IMG/VR virus record: IMGVR_UViG_3300022911_000003
Location: 4,814 to 68,813 of that record
Source of the DNA: a virus
Length of the DNA: 64,000 nucleotides
Reading direction: 5' to 3' (one strand)
The notes under the pieces are model-generated. The model had not been told where the DNA came from, did not search any database, and was given only the letters and a program-made list of their open reading frames with translations. The translations under genes were made by a program, and so were the position numbers. Below are positions 2,854 to 18,765 of the stretch, piece by piece (the first letter of the stretch is position 1; each line of letters starts with the position of its first letter).

Positions 2854-3204
2854 GTGATTGAAACACCGCAGGACCGGGAAGACCGAATCGTTCAGCGCGT
2901 GCTGGCCTTTGCTACGGTCGCCATCGTTGCCTTCGTCGTGGTCATCCTTATGTTCAAGGAAATCCCGAACAAGAACGAGGTCATGATCGGCACCGTGATC
3001 GGATTTATCTTTGGGAACATGGCCGGGCCTATCTTCCGCAAGATATTCGGCGGCCCTGATTCGGGAACGCGCCAAGCTGTGGCTGCATCCAATGACGTGC
3101 TCAAGACGGCAGTCGCTGCTGCATCTGGCGTCCAAGGAAATCCTGTCGTTGTTCAGGCGCCGGCCGTCGTGACCGTAGAGCCAAATCCCAAGCCCGAGGA
3201 ATAA
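2854..3204 (+). CDS. Holin candidate (2 TM)
   Basis: GGGAG RBS; two TM helices with a hydrophilic C-terminus; precedes the endolysin. Confidence 0.55.
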   Translation: MIETPQDREDRIVQRVLAFATVAIVAFVVVILMFKEIPNKNEVMIGTVIGFIFGNMAGPIFRKIFGGPDSGTRQAVAASNDVLKTAVAAASGVQGNPVVVQAPAVVTVEPNPKPEE

Positions 3205-3206
3205 CC

Positions 3207-3425
3207 ATGACGCTCGCAGCGGCCTATACGGCGCAGTCCGGCACCTATCCCGAGTTCCTGCATGTCCATGACGCCGGCGACACGGTCCGCATCTCGGTTC
3301 GAGGCCCGGCCGTTCCGAACGATGATGGTGTTCTGACCGAAGGACCGACGGTTTCGATGACCATGCCGCGCGACAAGTACGTCAAACTTCTGAAACAAGC
3401 CCTGGAGCAAATGCCCGATGTTTGA
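3207..3425 (+). CDS. Hypothetical protein
   Basis: Tightly packed in the lysis operon. Confidence 0.6.
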   Translation: MTLAAAYTAQSGTYPEFLHVHDAGDTVRISVRGPAVPNDDGVLTEGPTVSMTMPRDKYVKLLKQALEQMPDV

Positions 3426-4026
3426 AACCCTGCAAAAGAACCTCGCGGCCAAGGGCCTGTACGGCGGCGCGATCGACGGCCTCACTGGTCCGAAAACTTA
3501 CTCAGGACTGATCCAGGCCATCGGGGCTCACATTGACCCAGTCAGACTGCCCGAACTGACTCAGGCCTTTTCTTTGAGGCTTGCACAGGGCCACATCGAC
3601 ACAGCGCTCAGGCTGTCGCACTTCATTGCTCAGTGCGCGCATGAGTCTGGCGGGTTCCATTACTGGTATGAGCTCGGCGGCCCGGACTATTTCAAGAAGT
3701 ACGACGGCCGGAAGGATCTCGGAAATACCTATCTCGGAGATGGATACCGATTCCGTGGTCGCGGCATCATTCAGCTTACCGGCCGAAGCAACTATTCCAA
3801 GTATGCCGCTGCTCTCGGCCTGGACCTGATAGGCAATCCCGAACTGGCTGCCACGACCGATGTCGCTGTCAGGATCGCTGTCCAGTTCTGGAACGACCAT
3901 GGTCTGTCAGCGCTTGCCGACAAGGATGACGTTCTGACGATCACGAAGCGAATCAATGGCGGAACCCGCGGACTTGCAGAGCGCAAAGCCTACTTGGTAA
4001 AAATGAAATCACTGTTCGGCATCTGA
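3418..4026 (+). CDS. Endolysin, glycoside hydrolase family 19
   Basis: HFIAQCAHESGGF, FRGRGIIQLTGRSNY and ITKRINGGTRGLAER are GH19 motifs. Confidence 0.92.
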   Translation: MFETLQKNLAAKGLYGGAIDGLTGPKTYSGLIQAIGAHIDPVRLPELTQAFSLRLAQGHIDTALRLSHFIAQCAHESGGFHYWYELGGPDYFKKYDGRKDLGNTYLGDGYRFRGRGIIQLTGRSNYSKYAAALGLDLIGNPELAATTDVAVRIAVQFWNDHGLSALADKDDVLTITKRINGGTRGLAERKAYLVKMKSLFGI

Positions 4027-4028
4027 CC

Positions 4029-4391
4029 ATGTTCAGCGGCATCAAGACCTACCTCCTGATCGGCGCGGCAGTCCTGATCCTCGGAACAGTCGGCGGCCTA
4101 TGGTTCGAGTTCGAACACCGTGGCGCCGAACTGAAAGTGATGAAGGCCGATCTCGCTGCAGCTCAGGCCCGGGCACTGGCTGCGGAGCGCAACATCAAGA
4201 TCGAGACGCAGATCCAGACCGTGACGCGGAAGGTCTATGTCAAAGCCAAGGAGGCTCAAATTGCCGTACAAGCCCAAGACCCGAAATGTGCTGATGCTGG
4301 TCCTTTTATCGACAGTTGGCGTTCTGGGGTTATTCTCGTGCGCAACTCGGCCGGTTCCAGTACCAGTTCCGCTTCCCCCGTCGGTCCTTGA
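4029..4391 (+). CDS. Inner-membrane spanin (Rz-like)
   Basis: N-terminal TM helix then coiled coil; directly after the endolysin. Confidence 0.75.
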   Translation: MFSGIKTYLLIGAAVLILGTVGGLWFEFEHRGAELKVMKADLAAAQARALAAERNIKIETQIQTVTRKVYVKAKEAQIAVQAQDPKCADAGPFIDSWRSGVILVRNSAGSSTSSASPVGP

Positions 4392-4530
4392 ATCGTGCCT
4401 GTCCGGAGATCCCGCTCTGGTAAAGACGGTTCAGGACCTGGCCGTGTTCTCGATCGACCAAGAAGCAGCGCTACAAGCCTGCGAGGCAAAGCGTAAAGCG
4501 CTGGTTGATATCGCCCAGGGCAAGCCTTAG
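4294..4530 (+). CDS. Outer-membrane lipoprotein spanin (Rz1-like), overlapping the i-spanin
   Basis: Signal peptide with lipobox LFSC followed by a Pro-rich segment; overlaps Rz in another frame. Confidence 0.8.
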   Translation: MLVLLSTVGVLGLFSCATRPVPVPVPLPPSVLESCLSGDPALVKTVQDLAVFSIDQEAALQACEAKRKALVDIAQGKP

Positions 4531-4853
4531 CGGACCATTACTGGCGGGAATGATGAGGTGCCTTCCATAAGGCTTGCGCCGGCATTCGCACCATCGTACT
4601 TTTCCTTGAGGCTCAGATACAACGCCACCTCATCAGTGTCAGGCTCGCCATCCCTTAGCTTTCGGTAGAAGACGACACGGACCCGTTTGGGATCTATACC
4701 GTTCTGGTTCTCTGTAATGCAGATGGTCAGGTCTTCGACGGCGCACCCGGCACGACCTGCCACGTCCTGAAAGTCCTTGGTGATCTGGTCCAGGGTCAGT
4801 TTTATGCTATCCCAATTGACTTGATTGAACTCGACGAGTTTCTTGCCGATCAT
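4527..4853 (-). CDS. Hypothetical protein
   Basis: AAGGAG RBS; last gene of the leftward operon. Confidence 0.65.
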   Translation of the reverse strand: MIGKKLVEFNQVNWDSIKLTLDQITKDFQDVAGRAGCAVEDLTICITENQNGIDPKRVRVVFYRKLRDGEPDTDEVALYLSLKEKYDGANAGASLMEGTSSFPPVMVR

Positions 4854-4856
4854 GTT

Positions 4857-5093
4857 CTATCTCCTTGTGGGTGGAATTGACGGTACGCCTTCAGACTGAC
4901 TGGAGCCGCACATCGGAATAGTTACCCAACCATCAGGCGGCGGTTTCAGCTTCATCGACATGAACGGTGGCTCAAGGTCAAACGACTTGGCTGCGACAAC
5001 CTGACCACCCGGGCCGACATAAACAGCCGGCGTTTCAGGCGGGATGTGCCAAGATATCTTGTATCCGTCGCGGAAGGTGTAGAGGGGCTTCAT
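4857..5093 (-). CDS. Hypothetical protein
   Basis: ATGA overlap with the upstream gene (start MKPLYTF). Confidence 0.55.
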   Translation of the reverse strand: MKPLYTFRDGYKISWHIPPETPAVYVGPGGQVVAAKSFDLEPPFMSMKLKPPPDGWVTIPMCGSSQSEGVPSIPPTRR

Positions 5094-5332
5094 CCTTCCC
5101 TCCGGGGAGAATGCTCTCCGACAAGCCAAGCGCAGGCTGCAATTTCCAAGGCGCGCTTGGCCTCAGCTTTTGTAAGTGGCGCGCTTACATCATCTTCGCA
5201 AAGGCTCGCCACCCACCAGTCAGTTTTCGGCGGATGCTTCAGCCAAACGTAGCCAATCATTCGACCATTCCAATACAGCGACCTATCCAGGCGCCATTCA
5301 AAATCAAGTCGCGTCTCGCATGTGTTAGTCAT
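5090..5332 (-). CDS. Hypothetical protein
   Basis: Packed with 4-nt overlaps. Confidence 0.55.
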   Translation of the reverse strand: MTNTCETRLDFEWRLDRSLYWNGRMIGYVWLKHPPKTDWWVASLCEDDVSAPLTKAEAKRALEIAACAWLVGEHSPRREG

Positions 5333-14022: not shown

Positions 14023-14421
14023 ATGGAAGGAAAATATCACATGCAAACCGCGACCAGACTCCCGACCATCGTCGGCGATCCAACTGCTCACTCTATCGCA
14101 ATGTTCCAGAAGCGTGTCTTTCAGCGCCTGACCAAAGGTCTTGAAGGTGAAGACTTCAAGCGCGAACTAACTCTGGCAAGCCAAACCGAACAAAGAATGC
14201 GTCCTCCCATGGGACGCCTGATTGGTCACGGCCAGCAACTCGCAGCGATTCGCGAGCGAAAAGCAGCCGAAGCAATGCCTACCACCTCTGACTCTGTCGA
14301 TTCGCGTCAGGTGAAGCGCCGCGTCGAACTGAAGGCCCGCAAGAAAACCGCGGCGGCCGAGCGGAAGGCAGCCATCGCCAATCGTCTTCGTCAGACCCGG
14401 AAGAAAACCGGGACAGCATGA
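14023..14421 (+). CDS. Basic hypothetical protein
   Basis: Packed in the operon; Lys/Arg-rich C-terminus. Confidence 0.55.
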   Translation: MEGKYHMQTATRLPTIVGDPTAHSIAMFQKRVFQRLTKGLEGEDFKRELTLASQTEQRMRPPMGRLIGHGQQLAAIRERKAAEAMPTTSDSVDSRQVKRRVELKARKKTAAAERKAAIANRLRQTRKKTGTA

Positions 14422-14858
14422 CGGATCGAAAGCCTGACCTGCAATTGTTCCTTGGCGGCAAAGTCGTCGCCAAGGGACGGGCACGCACCGCAACGCGCAA
14501 GCGATCCGCTGCCAAAGGTGGTGGGACGTGGATCGCTCACATCACCCCTCCTGCCACTGAGAACTACGAGAAGGCGATCAAGGCCGAGGTTCTGAGAATT
14601 CTGCGTGCCCCACTATCTGGTCCACTCTGGGTCAAGGTCATCTTCTACATTGCCCCCCCGAGGTCCTGGTCCAAGAAAGCGCAGGCCGCAGCGGTCGGAA
14701 CCTACGTCGTTTCTAAGCCAGACCTTGATAACTATGTCAAAATATTCGACGGCCTCAACGAGGTGGCGTGGCACGACGATAGCCAGATCGTGAAACTTCA
14801 AGCCGTCAAAAAGTACAGCGAGGCGCCCGGAATGGCTCTCCAGATATTCCGTTTATAA
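14418..14858 (+). CDS. rusA: RusA-family Holliday junction resolvase
   Basis: KPDLDNYVK...WHDDSQIV motif. Confidence 0.9.
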   Translation: MTDRKPDLQLFLGGKVVAKGRARTATRKRSAAKGGGTWIAHITPPATENYEKAIKAEVLRILRAPLSGPLWVKVIFYIAPPRSWSKKAQAAAVGTYVVSKPDLDNYVKIFDGLNEVAWHDDSQIVKLQAVKKYSEAPGMALQIFRL

Positions 14859-14871
14859 CAAGGGGATTTCC

Positions 14872-16095
14872 TTGACACATTCTGATTGCAGCCTCCACCT
14901 CGGAGACTGTCGTGAAGTCATGGCTGCGATGCCGGACAACTCTGTAGACTCGATCGTCTGTGATCCGCCGTATGAAATCGACTTCATGGGCAAAGGTTGG
15001 GACAGGTCTGGCATAGCCTATGATCCTGTGGTCTGGCAGCAATGTCTCAGAGTTCTGAGGCCTGGTGGGCACATGGTCGCGGCGTCTCACGTCAAGACGT
15101 ATCACCGCATGGCAATAGCGATCGAGGATTCCGGGTTTGAGATCCGCGACATGATACCTTGGATCTATTCCAGTGGTTTCCCGAAGAACCATGACGCGGA
15201 GCGCGCCGTGGCTCAGAAGCAATGCGTGCTGCCCGGCCGGCACTTCTCACGCCAGGTTCCGGAAGGTGCAAAGTTCATGGAAGGCGACCACATTTGCCAC
15301 GAGACTGCGGACAGTCTCATATGGAAAGGCTTTGGCACAGCCCTGAAACCGGCCAACGAACCATTCTGTCTGGCCCGCAAGCCACTTGATGGCAGCGTGG
15401 CTGAGAACATCCTGAAATGGGGCGTTGGGGTGCTGAATATCGACGACTGCAGGGTTGGGGATGACGAGGCAGAGCGCGGACGCTGGCCGGCCAACATCAT
15501 TACTGACGGTTCTGAACCGATCACTAGCCAGTTTCCAGAGGTCGCTGCGGGCGGGGGTTTGACTGGTAACGAGCCATCTCGTCCCATGGGCGGCCATGTC
15601 TACGGTGACATGAATGGGCGGCACACGTGGCAGTCCTATGATGACTTCGGATCAGCGGCGCGGTTCTTCTACTGTGCCAAGTCATCTACAGAGGATCGTG
15701 AACACGGCCTTGAAATGCTGGAACACCAGTTGCCGGCTGCTGCGCAGTTCAGGCCGAACCACTTGGAAAAGGCCAATGATGGCGAGGCGGGAAACCCATA
15801 TGGACGGTACAGGAAGCGCAAAAATATCCATCCGACCGTCAAGCCAGTGGGCCTGATGCGATACCTGTGCCGGCTGATCACGCCACGAGGCGGAACGGTA
15901 CTGGACCCTTTTATGGGATCTGGCAGCACGGGCAAGGCAGCGAGGCACGAGATCTTCAAATTCATCGGCATCGACATCACGCCTGAATATTATGAAATCG
16001 CCACCAGACGCCTGAGTGCGGTCGTGGCTCAAATGGATCTATTCCGGCACGTCAAACCCCAAGCCCAGCAACCCAGCATGTTCGGTGACGAATGA
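14872..16095 (+). CDS. Beta-class N6-A/N4-C DNA methyltransferase
   Basis: DPPY (motif IV), HPTVKP and VLDPFMGSGST (motif I). Confidence 0.9.
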   Translation: MTHSDCSLHLGDCREVMAAMPDNSVDSIVCDPPYEIDFMGKGWDRSGIAYDPVVWQQCLRVLRPGGHMVAASHVKTYHRMAIAIEDSGFEIRDMIPWIYSSGFPKNHDAERAVAQKQCVLPGRHFSRQVPEGAKFMEGDHICHETADSLIWKGFGTALKPANEPFCLARKPLDGSVAENILKWGVGVLNIDDCRVGDDEAERGRWPANIITDGSEPITSQFPEVAAGGGLTGNEPSRPMGGHVYGDMNGRHTWQSYDDFGSAARFFYCAKSSTEDREHGLEMLEHQLPAAAQFRPNHLEKANDGEAGNPYGRYRKRKNIHPTVKPVGLMRYLCRLITPRGGTVLDPFMGSGSTGKAARHEIFKFIGIDITPEYYEIATRRLSAVVAQMDLFRHVKPQAQQPSMFGDE

Positions 16096-17402
16096 GTGAG
16101 GCAGAAAATGACCTGGATCTATGTCCCATCAACCTCATCAGTCTGTGTACCGGAGGAGGCGGACTCGATCTCGGATTCGAGTTGGCGGTTCCAGGTGCTC
16201 GAAGCGTCGTGCTGGTCGAGAGGGAAACCTACGCGATCGCGCAACTGGTATCAGCTATGGAAGCGGGGCTTATGGCTCCAGCGCCTGTGTGGAGCGATGT
16301 GTTCACCTTCCGCGGCCGAGACTGGCGTGGCGCAGTGGACGGCGTCATTGGTGGAATCCCGTGCCAACCACACAGTCTCGCTGGCAAGCGACTCGGCGAA
16401 GAAGACGAACGCGATCTCTGGTCCGATGCAAGGCGAATCATCGTCCAGTCCGGGGCGTGGTTCTGCCTCATTGAAAACGTCCGCGGCATGGTCTCATCGG
16501 GCGGACTCGAGCGAGTTTGGCGAGACCTTCGACGGCTTGGTTTCACGGTTGAGGTTGGACTGTTCACGGCGGAGGAAGTCGGCGCCAGTCACGAGCGGGA
16601 GCGAGTCTTCATCCTCGCAGTGGCGAACCCCGACCGACGACTCGAACCGCGGCGGAGCGCAGTCCGGCCTGAAGCGGCTTCAGGCCGGACATACAATGAA
16701 CCTGCAAGATCAAGTGGTGGACTTTCGTGTGGAGTCGGCCAGGCCGACTCCAGCGACACGGGATTACAAGGGCGCGAACTCAGCGGATCACTTGGAGAAC
16801 GGCACGGGTCGGAAGCATCTGGATCAACTGCCAAACTTCGTCCAGCACATTTGGTCGACGCCCAGGGCGTCGGACGGGGAGAAGGGCAGTCCGAATCAGG
16901 ATTTCGGAGCAGGCGGGACACCTTTGCCGGCGCAAGCAGTGCAATGGCAGACGCCGAAGGTGGCGCCGGGGGCCTATACGAGGGACCGCGGCCAGAAAGG
17001 TCAGGAACGCCTGTCCGTCGAGGGACAGGCGCGGAGCGAGACTTGGTCGACACCGTCGGTAGCGGACGTGATGGGGGGCAGGCTGTCTCGGGACCGAGAC
17101 AGGTCGGACGAACTGTTGATGAACGGTCAGGCGGCTTCCCTATCTTCCCACCTGGACCAAATGACTTATCCGGTTGGCGGGATATCCTCGACCGAGCGCC
17201 GGAGTTTGAACCCAGTTTTCGTCGAGTATCTGATGGGTTGGCCTCTCGGATGGACATTGCTCGCGTGGACCGACTTAGGATGCTCGGCAACGGCGTTGTG
17301 CCACTTCAAGCAGCGTATGCGGTCAGAACTCTTGCGCATCGGCTTGCCGCCAGAGGCTCCGCTGGTGCAGCCAGACTTGTTCGGATGATGGACCATGACT
17401 GA
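16092..17402 (+). CDS. C5-cytosine DNA methyltransferase, alpha polypeptide (motifs I-VIII and X)
   Basis: LISLCTGGGGLDLG, GIPCQPHS, IENVRG, HERERVFI and RLRMLGNGVVP. Motif IX is absent from this frame. Confidence 0.88.
   Translation: MSEAENDLDLCPINLISLCTGGGGLDLGFELAVPGARSVVLVERETYAIAQLVSAMEAGLMAPAPVWSDVFTFRGRDWRGAVDGVIGGIPCQPHSLAGKRLGEEDERDLWSDARRIIVQSGAWFCLIENVRGMVSSGGLERVWRDLRRLGFTVEVGLFTAEEVGASHERERVFILAVANPDRRLEPRRSAVRPEAASGRTYNEPARSSGGLSCGVGQADSSDTGLQGRELSGSLGERHGSEASGSTAKLRPAHLVDAQGVGRGEGQSESGFRSRRDTFAGASSAMADAEGGAGGLYEGPRPERSGTPVRRGTGAERDLVDTVGSGRDGGQAVSGPRQVGRTVDERSGGFPIFPPGPNDLSGWRDILDRAPEFEPSFRRVSDGLASRMDIARVDRLRMLGNGVVPLQAAYAVRTLAHRLAARGSAGAARLVRMMDHD
16108..17388 (+). CDS. C5 methyltransferase beta polypeptide nested in the +1 frame (TRD-like repeats and motif IX)
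   Basis: 1.3 kb stop-free overlapping frame with GAGG RBS; five WxTP repeats; RRSLNPVFVEYLMGWPLGWT is motif IX-like. Confidence 0.75.
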   Translation: MTWIYVPSTSSVCVPEEADSISDSSWRFQVLEASCWSRGKPTRSRNWYQLWKRGLWLQRLCGAMCSPSAAETGVAQWTASLVESRANHTVSLASDSAKKTNAISGPMQGESSSSPGRGSASLKTSAAWSHRADSSEFGETFDGLVSRLRLDCSRRRKSAPVTSGSESSSSQWRTPTDDSNRGGAQSGLKRLQAGHTMNLQDQVVDFRVESARPTPATRDYKGANSADHLENGTGRKHLDQLPNFVQHIWSTPRASDGEKGSPNQDFGAGGTPLPAQAVQWQTPKVAPGAYTRDRGQKGQERLSVEGQARSETWSTPSVADVMGGRLSRDRDRSDELLMNGQAASLSSHLDQMTYPVGGISSTERRSLNPVFVEYLMGWPLGWTLLAWTDLGCSATALCHFKQRMRSELLRIGLPPEAPLVQPDLFG

Positions 17403-18765
17403 AACATCAAATCTTGGCAGCGAGCAGGCCCTTCTCGGCACGCTGCTGTACGAGAACGAGGCGCTTGAACTGATCCAGAACGGCTTAAAGCCGGAACACT
17501 TCGCAGAGCCATTCCACCAGAGACTGTTCGCAACGATCCTGGCATGGCGCGATGAGAGGCCGGCCAGGTTGGCGAACCCAACCCTGTTGGCGAAGAAGTT
17601 TGCCGAGGATCAGGCCTACCTCGACTTGGGCGGCATAACTTATTTCGCCGATCTGGTCGACCGCGCCCCTCCTATGGCCAACATCGGCCAGTACGCCCGC
17701 GACATTCTTAACCTGTGGCAGTTGCGCAGGCTCGAGTCGGCCGCGAGCAGGGCGACAGTATTTGATGATGCTCAGGAGGCTATGTCGTTCCTGAGAAAAG
17801 CCGTGGACAGCATCGACGAGGCCAGCCCCGAGGAAGATGACCTTGAGGCGTCCGACACCATTGCTGCGAAGTTTATGGCCCAAATGGGAGACATGGCGAG
17901 GTCTGGGAAGACTCTGGGTCTCAGGTCTGGACTGGCGTCATTCGATGATGTGGTGGGCGGCCTTGTCCCGTCGGACCTGATTATTCTCGCAGGCACGGCG
18001 TCCATGGGCAAGAGTCTGGCCGGCCGATCACTGATCTACAAGGCCGCTGCGGCAAATCCGGACAAACTGTTCCTGATCTACAGCTTGGAAATGCCGAAGT
18101 GGCAGTTGATGGCCCGGACCATCTCGGAACTGGCGTACTGGAAAGGCCAGAAGATTCCGTACCGAAACTACAAGTCTCCGTCGGTCCGGATGCAGGAGGA
18201 CCTGCTGCCGTTTCAGGACATGGTTCCGTCCAATGTGCTGATATCGGAGCGCCGCCGCCTGTCGATGGAGGATATCGAGCGCAGCGTCAGGCGGACAGTC
18301 CGAACCAAAGGCCAGGTCGGGGCATATCTCGTCGACCACATCCATGAACTCAGGGTCGACGACAAAGCCTTCGATCCCTACGGCGAGGCGGCGGGACGGG
18401 CCAAGGTGCTGAATGCTGAACTGGGACTGACGGGTATTTTGCTGAGCCAGTTGAGCCGGGCGGTCCAGGGCCGGGACGGAAAGCGACCCTTGATCTCCGA
18501 CCTGCGACAGTCCGGGTCTTTGGAGCAGAAGGCCGACGTCGTCATGTTCCCATACCGAGAATGGCAGGTCCTGAAAGACGAAAAGCCCCGAAAGGAATCG
18601 GCGCAGCAGGACTGGGAAAACAAGATGGCGGCGGCGAAGAACAAGTTGACCATGATCTATGCCAAGGTCAGGTCCGGAGCGCCCGAGGACCGTGACATGT
18701 GGTGCAACCCGGCCTTCGACACTTTCGCCGATCAAGCCCCGGCCGACACGATCTGGGAGGACTGA
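17395..18765 (+). CDS. dnaB: DnaB-like replicative helicase
   Basis: EQALLGTLL, LIILAGTASMGKS, YSLEMP, LSQLSRAV and DLRQSGSLEQKADVV. Confidence 0.92.
   Translation: MTETSNLGSEQALLGTLLYENEALELIQNGLKPEHFAEPFHQRLFATILAWRDERPARLANPTLLAKKFAEDQAYLDLGGITYFADLVDRAPPMANIGQYARDILNLWQLRRLESAASRATVFDDAQEAMSFLRKAVDSIDEASPEEDDLEASDTIAAKFMAQMGDMARSGKTLGLRSGLASFDDVVGGLVPSDLIILAGTASMGKSLAGRSLIYKAAAANPDKLFLIYSLEMPKWQLMARTISELAYWKGQKIPYRNYKSPSVRMQEDLLPFQDMVPSNVLISERRRLSMEDIERSVRRTVRTKGQVGAYLVDHIHELRVDDKAFDPYGEAAGRAKVLNAELGLTGILLSQLSRAVQGRDGKRPLISDLRQSGSLEQKADVVMFPYREWQVLKDEKPRKESAQQDWENKMAAAKNKLTMIYAKVRSGAPEDRDMWCNPAFDTFADQAPADTIWED

Follow-up and report, generated by a model that had tools for sequence, protein, structure and literature searches.

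Selection alternates between two overlapping frames of a phage C5 methyltransferase gene that probably encodes a two-chain enzyme with an exchangeable repeat array

In a 64,000-nucleotide stretch of phage DNA (the window; positions 4,814 to 68,813 of the 70,956-base IMG/VR record IMGVR_UViG_3300022911_000003), one gene for a C5 cytosine methyltransferase (MTase) consists of two open reading frames (ORFs) on the same strand that overlap completely. We call them alpha and beta. Because selective constraint alternates between the two frames along the gene, the likeliest product is a single enzyme of two chains, of which alpha would be the catalytic one and beta would recognize the DNA. We give this model, taken as a whole, a probability of about 0.62. 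The repeats in beta, the selection on beta, the two open frames, the alternation of constraint, and the turnover of modules among relatives can all be read directly from the sequences. A C5 MTase made as two chains from two frames is already known; what is new is the behavior of the repeat array, whose modules turn over and are swapped. The two ORFs are:

16092 to 17402, + strand: alpha ORF, 436 amino acids, large-domain chain of the C5 cytosine MTase (PF00145, phrog_363)
16108 to 17388, + strand: beta ORF, in the +1 frame relative to alpha, 426 amino acids from the ATG at 16108; open from 16096, with its stop codon at 17386-17388

We computed nucleotide variability (as entropy) for each codon phase in a clade of 57 loci, and we take the frame whose position 3 is the most variable to be the selected one. 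(Pairwise identity over whole segments did not resolve the frames finely enough within the array, so codon-phase entropy and the ratio of nonsynonymous to synonymous substitution rates, dN/dS, replaced that measure.) The selected frame alternates between alpha and beta in six stretches in turn:

16123 to 16617: alpha, motifs I-VIII
16618 to 17112: beta, the modules of the repeat array
17113 to 17202: alpha, FPPGPNDLSGW
17203 to 17247: beta, very conserved, SLNPVFVEYLMGWPL
17248 to 17337: alpha, motif X
17338 to 17382: beta, C-terminal tail

We assign motifs I-VIII to alpha because position 3 of the alpha codons is the most variable there. Selection passes to beta at 16618, which is also where the first tryptophan of the array is found; the codon of this tryptophan lies inside alpha motif VIII. 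Within orthologous module types, dN/dS (NG86) is 0.14-0.28 in the beta frame, 1.5-2.7 in the alpha frame, and 1.4-1.95 in the third frame, and the amino acid identity of alpha across the array is at the level of a non-coding frame. An earlier annotation of this DNA, which we will call the first-pass annotation, had proposed that selection acts on beta across 16621-17256 while alpha carries a neutral linker, and had suggested dN/dS in each frame as a check. The values above bear out the first proposal for 16618-17112, as does the variability of codon position 3, but 17113-17202 of the proposed interval is dominated by alpha.

The linker in alpha is a more complicated case. At 117 non-redundant loci, we shuffled synonymous codons in whichever frame is selected and tallied the stop codons that appear in the other one:

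Alpha catalytic region, beta frame: 17 stops observed and 248 expected; zero stops in 110 of 117 loci
Module array, alpha frame: 18 stops observed and 360 expected; zero stops in 114 of 117 loci
Alpha catalytic region, third frame (control): 508 stops observed and 617 expected
Module array, third frame (control): 492 stops observed and 452 expected

So the sequence of the alpha linker is unconstrained, as the first-pass annotation had it, but stop codons are avoided there, and the linker is not fully neutral. A lower-GC group of relatives (L067, positions 1197-2730, and also L072, L074, L079, L136, L141, and L144) has split alpha, with many stops inside the array: in the L067 group, a 188-amino-acid ORF contains motifs I-VIII and stops just past VIII, and an 88-amino-acid ORF with its own ATG contains WPPGP...GNGVVP. 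Beta is continuous there, with 509 amino acids. That alpha is broken within the array and beta is not confirms that the alpha linker by itself serves no function. Judging from these sequences, the enzyme of this group would be in three pieces, unless the pieces are joined in another way.

The pair of open frames is widespread. It was present in 151 of the 166 viral and bacterial loci that we fetched, mostly from prophages of Rhizobiales and other Alphaproteobacteria. For example, co-extensive ORFs with beta in the +1 frame of alpha are found in Synechococcus phage Yong-M2-251, Burkholderia phage phi1026b, and Acidovorax phage Alfacinha1. At loci that were found via alpha alone (n = 51), the +1 frame has 44 stops, most of which are beta's own stop, and the third frame has 592. 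A search with a profile of beta found 28,406 cluster representatives at E ≤ 1e-10 among 1.84 billion; a scan of genome contigs with a single protein as the query had no matches. Gene callers have often called the beta frame and left it unnamed (more than 500 clusters), and in the records that we looked at, the second frame is mostly unannotated or named "hypothetical."

The motifs of a C5 MTase are divided between the two frames as follows:

16143 to 16175, + strand: alpha motif I, LCTGGGGLDLG
16350 to 16391, + strand: alpha motif IV, GGIPCQ..
16470 to 16481, + strand: alpha motif VI, IENV
16587 to 16622, + strand: alpha motif VIII, SHERERVFILAV
17145 to 17177, + strand: alpha FPPGPNDLSGW block, where constraint is back in the alpha frame
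17197 to 17256, + strand: beta RRSLNPVFVEYLMGWPLGWT, motif-IX-like block; no other stretch of beta is as conserved, and it is predicted to dock on alpha
17262 to 17321, + strand: alpha motif X region, RVDRLRMLGNGVVPLQAAYA, with LGNGVVP; alpha is the selected frame
17368 to 17385, + strand: beta C-terminus, QPDLFG, a clamp-binding-like Q-x-x-L-F whose F is one residue from the end

Motifs I (FxGxG), IV (PCQ), VI (ENV), and VIII (QxRxR) are in order in the one alpha chain. Amino acids 14-181 of alpha match PF00145 (E = 2.6e-26), and amino acids 9-414 match phrog_363. Between VIII and X, where the variable region with its target-recognition domain (TRD) and motif IX would be expected, alpha has only an unconstrained linker, and it is the +1 frame that contains conserved sequence. 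Alpha thus comprises motifs I-VIII, the stop-free linker, the FPPGP block, and motif X, and beta comprises a leader that shadows the catalytic part of alpha, the repeat array, the motif-IX-like block, a tail helix, and the QxxLF end. PHROG profiles that are annotated as DNA methyltransferase (phrog_1008) match the middle of beta and then the end of alpha in succession. When a low-GC relative of alpha was compared to PDB sequences with phmmer, only the catalytic half of M.HhaI and M.HaeIII was matched.

This division resembles the two-domain fold of C5 MTases, in which the large domain holds motifs I-VIII together with motif X, and the small domain contains the variable region and motif IX and makes the base-specific contacts (PMC3404938; PMC2790894). 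Relatives with a single frame show where the modules belong. Gp71 of the Mycobacterium phages IrishSherpFalk and WillSterrel (P0121) has LLPTPxxxDGxGG modules and RLNPAFPEWMMGWPTGWVT in one frame, between motif VIII and GNGVVPQQA. These modules are of the same family, and the same LNPxFxEWMMGWPxGW block precedes GNGVVPQQA; unlike the gene in the window, gp71 has everything in one frame and lacks a full-length second ORF. The modules are therefore located in what is the variable region in a bona fide C5 MTase, which agrees with the first-pass annotation's placement of the array at the TRD position. Gp84 of Arthrobacter phage MidnightRain (L004, positions 534-1988 and 886-1809) is intermediate: its xPTP modules are in a 307-amino-acid +1 ORF that starts inside the gene, and its LSPRFTEWMMGLPDGWVT block (motif IX) and motif X are in the annotated alpha frame. 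(An insertion in actinophage methylases, the ShiLan/HNH case [PMC11855218], was considered and set aside as a different phenomenon.) As for the motif-IX-like block, RRSLNPVFVEYLMGWPLGWT has the pattern and the position of motif IX (compare RKLSPLECWRLQAFDDEDF of M.SPBetaI), and the block precedes motif X in the single-frame relatives.

We infer that both frames are translated, that the two chains form a heterodimer, that beta recognizes DNA, and that its tail binds the clamp. Beta would be a second protein from the same DNA, with its own ATG at 16108 beside the start of alpha. Its leader would have a sequence largely dictated by alpha, and the modules, the motif-IX-like block, the helix, and the QPDLF peptide would follow. 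Alpha would supply motifs I-VIII and X, that is, the large catalytic domain, and the stop-free linker between them would just be the array as read in the alpha frame. The chains would most likely assemble as an alpha large domain and a beta small recognition domain. The array, in the variable region, is probably the part that recognizes DNA and would evolve as a cassette.

A prediction of the complex of alpha with residues 165-426 of beta supports binding between the chains, at the level of a model. Its score was 0.87, and the best of three controls scored 0.00. Of 80 solved complexes, 58 reached this mark, as did 2 of 110 mismatched pairs. The runs have at least 38% of their contacts in common, and the predicted local distance difference test score (pLDDT) of the partner is at least 44. 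The predicted interface joins residues 363-414 of beta (the motif-IX-like block and the next helix) to residues 22-60, 162-167, and 351-416 of alpha, and among the listed contacts of least expected error, none pairs residues that are encoded by the same nucleotides. Since single-chain C5 MTases have solved structures, this result may reflect likeness to known folds.

Several observations weigh against the two-chain model. Pfam has no family for beta or for the C-terminal pieces of either frame, and when every PDB sequence was searched with a profile hidden Markov model of beta, nothing came up except matches to MS2 coat protein at the level of chance. RRSLNPVFVEYLMGWPLGWT has no significant alignment to canonical enzymes, so the label of motif IX refers to its pattern, its position, and the predicted docking. 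AlphaFold2 models of beta alone have a mean pLDDT of 60 and a predicted template modeling score of 0.28, the pLDDT of the modules being 40-72, and the module region of the single-chain relative P0121 has a pLDDT of just 31-56. The first set of loci was retrieved through beta, and retrieval through alpha lessens this bias without removing it. Finally, conservation of the first ~170 residues of beta (0.51) is barely above that of the non-coding frame (0.46), the exceptions being the avoidance of stops and the start, M(x)W[LI][YF][VIL]P, which reads MTWIYVP in this phage. Part of beta is therefore passenger sequence.

Separately, AlphaFold2 places helices with pLDDT >80 at residues 30-60 and 141-158 of beta, in the leader encoded at 16108-16620, although the leader has no coding signature of its own. 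These modeled helices may be an artefact of covariation that is imposed by alpha, or they may be a real fold.

There is precedent for a C5 MTase of this kind. According to PMC2836561 and PMC3404938, which describe the work of Lee, Kam & Shaw 1995, M.EcoHK31I (from E. coli HK31, with the target YGGCCR) is a natural two-polypeptide C5 MTase whose chains are both needed, and its beta chain contains motif IX and is encoded in another frame inside the alpha gene. Like M.EcoHK31I, the phage gene has a second conserved ORF in another frame inside an MTase gene. Comparing the descriptions, however, the TRD of M.EcoHK31I is in alpha and its beta is a short internal ORF, whereas the phage beta spans the whole gene from a neighboring start, and all of the variable region is in beta, in the form of a repeat array, along with a clamp-binding-like end. 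M.AquI (CYCGRG; PMC3404938) also has two chains that are split in the variable region, but its beta carries motifs IX and X. In the phage gene, alpha retains motif X, so that the chains divide at the boundary between the large and small domains. In a separate observation from the literature, p23 of Sinorhizobium prophage Phi2LM21, which is a putative MTase for 5-methylcytosine (m5C), was inactive when expressed alone in E. coli (PMC5537653).

The array lies after alpha motif VIII, which ends at 16622, and before the motif-IX-like block of beta (17197-17256). Its architecture in this phage is i-I-A-b-D:

16621 to 16740, + strand: module 1, type i, WRTPTDD...LQDQVV...; divergent member of the repeat family, with its W codon inside the end of alpha motif VIII
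16741 to 16851, + strand: module 2, type I, RPTPATRDYKG...LPNFVQHI
16852 to 16944, + strand: module 3, type A, WSTPRASDGEKGSPNQ...LPAQAVQ; the commonest type, with 45 members
16945 to 17043, + strand: module 4, type b, WQTPKVAPGAY...LSVEGQARSET
17044 to 17196, + strand: module 5, type D, WSTPSVAD...LLMNGQA and a linker to motif IX; this type is always last

The first-pass annotation had described five tandem WxTP units of 30-40 residues, each with an L..QV/QA-like end, between motifs VIII and IX. This description is confirmed. The beta frame does have five W/R-x-T-P heads, four of them WxTP and one RPTP (WRTP at 16621, RPTP at 16741, WSTP at 16852, WQTP at 16945, and WSTP at 17044), which are 40, 37, 31, and 33 amino acids apart. 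None of 20,000 shuffles of the residues reached four W.TP in 430 amino acids of beta. The units end in L..Q[VA] or L..GQA segments: LQDQV (16702-16716), LPNFVQ, LPAQA (16924-16938), LSVEGQA (17011-17031), and LLMNGQA (17113-17133). The location past alpha motif VIII and ahead of the motif-IX-like block is as described too. The five units are not all equally alike. In profile-profile comparisons of the module types, with profiles built from relatives, the units align at full length, with probabilities of 76% for units 2 and 3 (25 columns), 64% for units 3 and 4 (31 columns), and 89% for units 4 and 5 (31 columns), but the match of unit 1 to the others is confined to the first ~12 residues, with a probability of 1-10%. 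So there are four clearly homologous repeats (units 2-5) and one divergent first unit that has only its head in common with them.

We extracted 464 modules from 115 beta proteins and sorted them into types of at least four members by community detection. (Single-linkage clustering had chained 357 of the 464 modules into one group.) A protein has 1-8 modules, most often 4, and the median length of a module is 35 amino acids. The 35 types form 106 architectures in the 115 proteins. Only the last type, which adjoins motif IX, is bound to its position. Where the catalytic domains of two loci share 75% identity or more, their arrays share on average just 32%. For example, L013 and L016 have catalytic domains that are 91% identical and arrays, of 151 and 136 amino acids, that are 26% identical. 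Modules are gained, lost, and swapped; the first-pass annotation had inferred gain and loss, and had suggested comparing repeat numbers across homologs. By these comparisons, the array behaves as a cassette that is exchanged between near-identical cores, as would be expected of a specificity determinant.

As to the function of the array, the first possibility is that each WxTP module is an autonomous TRD, so that one catalytic chain would methylate several motifs, by analogy with M.SPRI, M.Phi3TI, and M.SPBetaI, and the gain or loss of a module would add or remove one protected site. This is a tentative reading that we consider unlikely, but it is the best of the alternatives. The array is at the TRD position, the 35 types are combined almost freely in arrays of 1-8, and arrays are swapped between near-identical cores with only the last type fixed in place. 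The Bacillus phage enzymes M.SPRI, M.Phi3TI, M.SPBetaI, and M.H2I (see the references in PMC8936443) likewise have tandem short units between VIII and IX in an orphan phage MTase, and they too combine units in different sets in different phages. M.SPBetaI has the TRD cores SPTLTTMGGG and AFTVNTIDRHG, ~47 amino acids apart, followed by motif IX RKLSPLECWRLQAFDDEDF. TRDs have a conserved TL dipeptide (PMC2790894), and to the eye, module heads such as PTPTAxDxKG resemble the T-L core in SPTLTTMGGG. On the other hand, the Bacillus phage enzymes are single polypeptides in one frame whose multispecificity is proven, and the modules here are shorter (a median of 35 amino acids, and a spacing of 31-40 in this phage rather than ~47). 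The profile of beta aligns to M.SPBetaI with a probability of 0.05% by hhalign, which is no homology, and tblastn with beta found no Bacillus phage. No module folds with confidence in AlphaFold2. Also, a single conserved head that is common to all modules would fit a repeated structural role equally well.

The second possibility, which seems to us clearly less probable than the first, is that the array is a flexible arm built of repeats that does not read sequence. It would provide general affinity for DNA, relaxed specificity, or contact with another partner, and its turnover would be neutral expansion and contraction, as in a region that resembles low-complexity sequence. The low AlphaFold2 confidence for the array in two contexts fits with an arm, as do the proteins with a single module, and relaxed-specificity m5C MTases are described from alphaproteobacterial prophages (PMC5537653), a likeness by description. 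But we do not see why such an arm would be under strong purifying selection inside each module type (the beta dN/dS values above) or why module types would be conserved across distant loci, and the array replaces the only region of the enzyme that could recognize DNA. Beside the relaxed-specificity arm and multispecificity, a composite TRD is another possible reading of the array. The low-confidence models do not favor a picture of one domain over a picture of many mini-domains, or the reverse. A Foldseek search with P0121 returned the MTase fold only, and literature searches with the motif strings returned nothing relevant.

Other explanations do away with beta as a separate chain. A ribosome might read the N-terminal part of alpha, shift +1 into the modules, and shift back for motif X, to yield one mosaic polypeptide. 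The order of alpha I-VIII, beta modules and IX, and alpha X is indeed that of a canonical single-chain MTase, and single-frame relatives exist. Nevertheless, we think frameshifting very improbable and reject it: constraint changes frame six times rather than twice, beta has no interruption anywhere in the catalytic region, its ATG and its MWLYVP start are conserved, and so is its C-terminal motif, and the junctions between frames have no slippery site or stop in common. The idea that GC-rich codon usage leaves beta open as a mere shadow frame that is not translated has almost nothing to recommend it even though the gene is 61% G+C and the beta leader resembles out-of-frame sequence, as the third frame has 5-32 stops in the same genes, relatives at 46-49% G+C hold both frames open over about 300 codons, the array has a beta-specific coding signature, and the stop counts, codon-phase variability, dN/dS, and alpha-retrieved loci all contradict it.

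The tail of beta provides an independent argument that beta is translated. The beta-clamp-binding motif QLxLF is typically C-terminal (PMC4549789), and QPDLF at 17368-17382 matches this consensus near the terminus. Of the 115 beta proteins, 74 have Q-x-x-[LMF]-[FLW] within their last 10 residues, as compared to 0.6% of other windows in beta, and the stricter Q-x-[ASDGTNE]-[LM]-F occurs in 62 beta tails, with one residue after the F in 56 of those 62. No alpha tail has either. The motif is conserved across clades, the linker before it differs between them, and at about 35 loci the beta stop, and hence the end of the tail, is beyond the alpha stop. A conserved motif at the C-terminus argues that beta is translated to its end. 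In eukaryotes, the coupling of DNMT1 to PCNA makes methylation replication-coupled. By its sequence, the tail of beta suggests replication-coupled methylation in these phages and, if real, would be a prokaryotic parallel to DNMT1-PCNA. In the literature searched, no paper was found that connects a clamp motif with the C5 MTases of bacteria or phages.

Should the array indeed be what recognizes DNA, then nature would have, in this very large family, a system with methylation specificity on a separate, modular, and exchangeable chain. That would be relevant to understanding how phages escape from restriction, and also to enzyme engineering, as split C5 MTases such as M.EcoHK31I are already platforms for targeted methylation. 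One could go further and propose that beta is a plug-in multispecific recognition subunit in which each WxTP module is a mini-TRD, that the QxxLF tail tethers the enzyme to the sliding clamp so that it acts on nascent DNA, that module cassettes are exchanged to track the restriction enzymes of the hosts, and that the overlap forces the joint inheritance and expression of both chains. We regard this combination as speculative, and a little more doubtful even than multispecificity by itself. Whatever the array does, the gene shows with unusual clarity how two long genes can overlap on the same strand with interleaved constraint.

There are also implications for annotation: usually, records either lack one of the two real genes or give the name to the wrong frame. 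For example, gp46 of Alfacinha1 (L003, positions 2993-4126) was deposited as a "cytosine-specific methyltransferase," but this coding sequence is the beta frame, and the frame with the catalytic motifs (2956-4110) is unannotated. In phi1026b (L002, positions 2990-5110), beta lacks a stop where the MTase gene ends and continues, in frame, into a ParB-like partition gene, to give a 706-amino-acid ORF. Related Burkholderia phage records annotate this region as a chromosome partitioning protein.

In the window, the C5 MTase gene is located in a replication module:

14418 to 14858: RusA, replication module
14872 to 16095: N6/N4 DNA methyltransferase (PF01555, DPPY motif), immediately 5' of the C5 MTase gene
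16092 to 17402: the alpha/beta gene
17395 to 18765: DnaB helicase, replication module

The upstream N6 MTase gene ends in a TGA that shares bases with the ATG of alpha (ATGA), and this TGA is in the frame of beta, so that three methyltransferase reading frames converge within 20 bases. The ATG of beta is 16 nucleotides 3' of the ATG of alpha and has its own GAGG at 16098-16101, 6 nucleotides before it. Across the clade, the start region reads NTGA-ATG-TGG, where the alpha start overlaps the upstream stop and the beta ATG comes directly after. This ATG is present in 52 of 52 cases, and most of the loci listed have a Shine-Dalgarno-like site upstream of the beta start. By its description, p23 of Phi2LM21 adjoins an MTase for N6-methyladenine in a replication module (PMC5537653).

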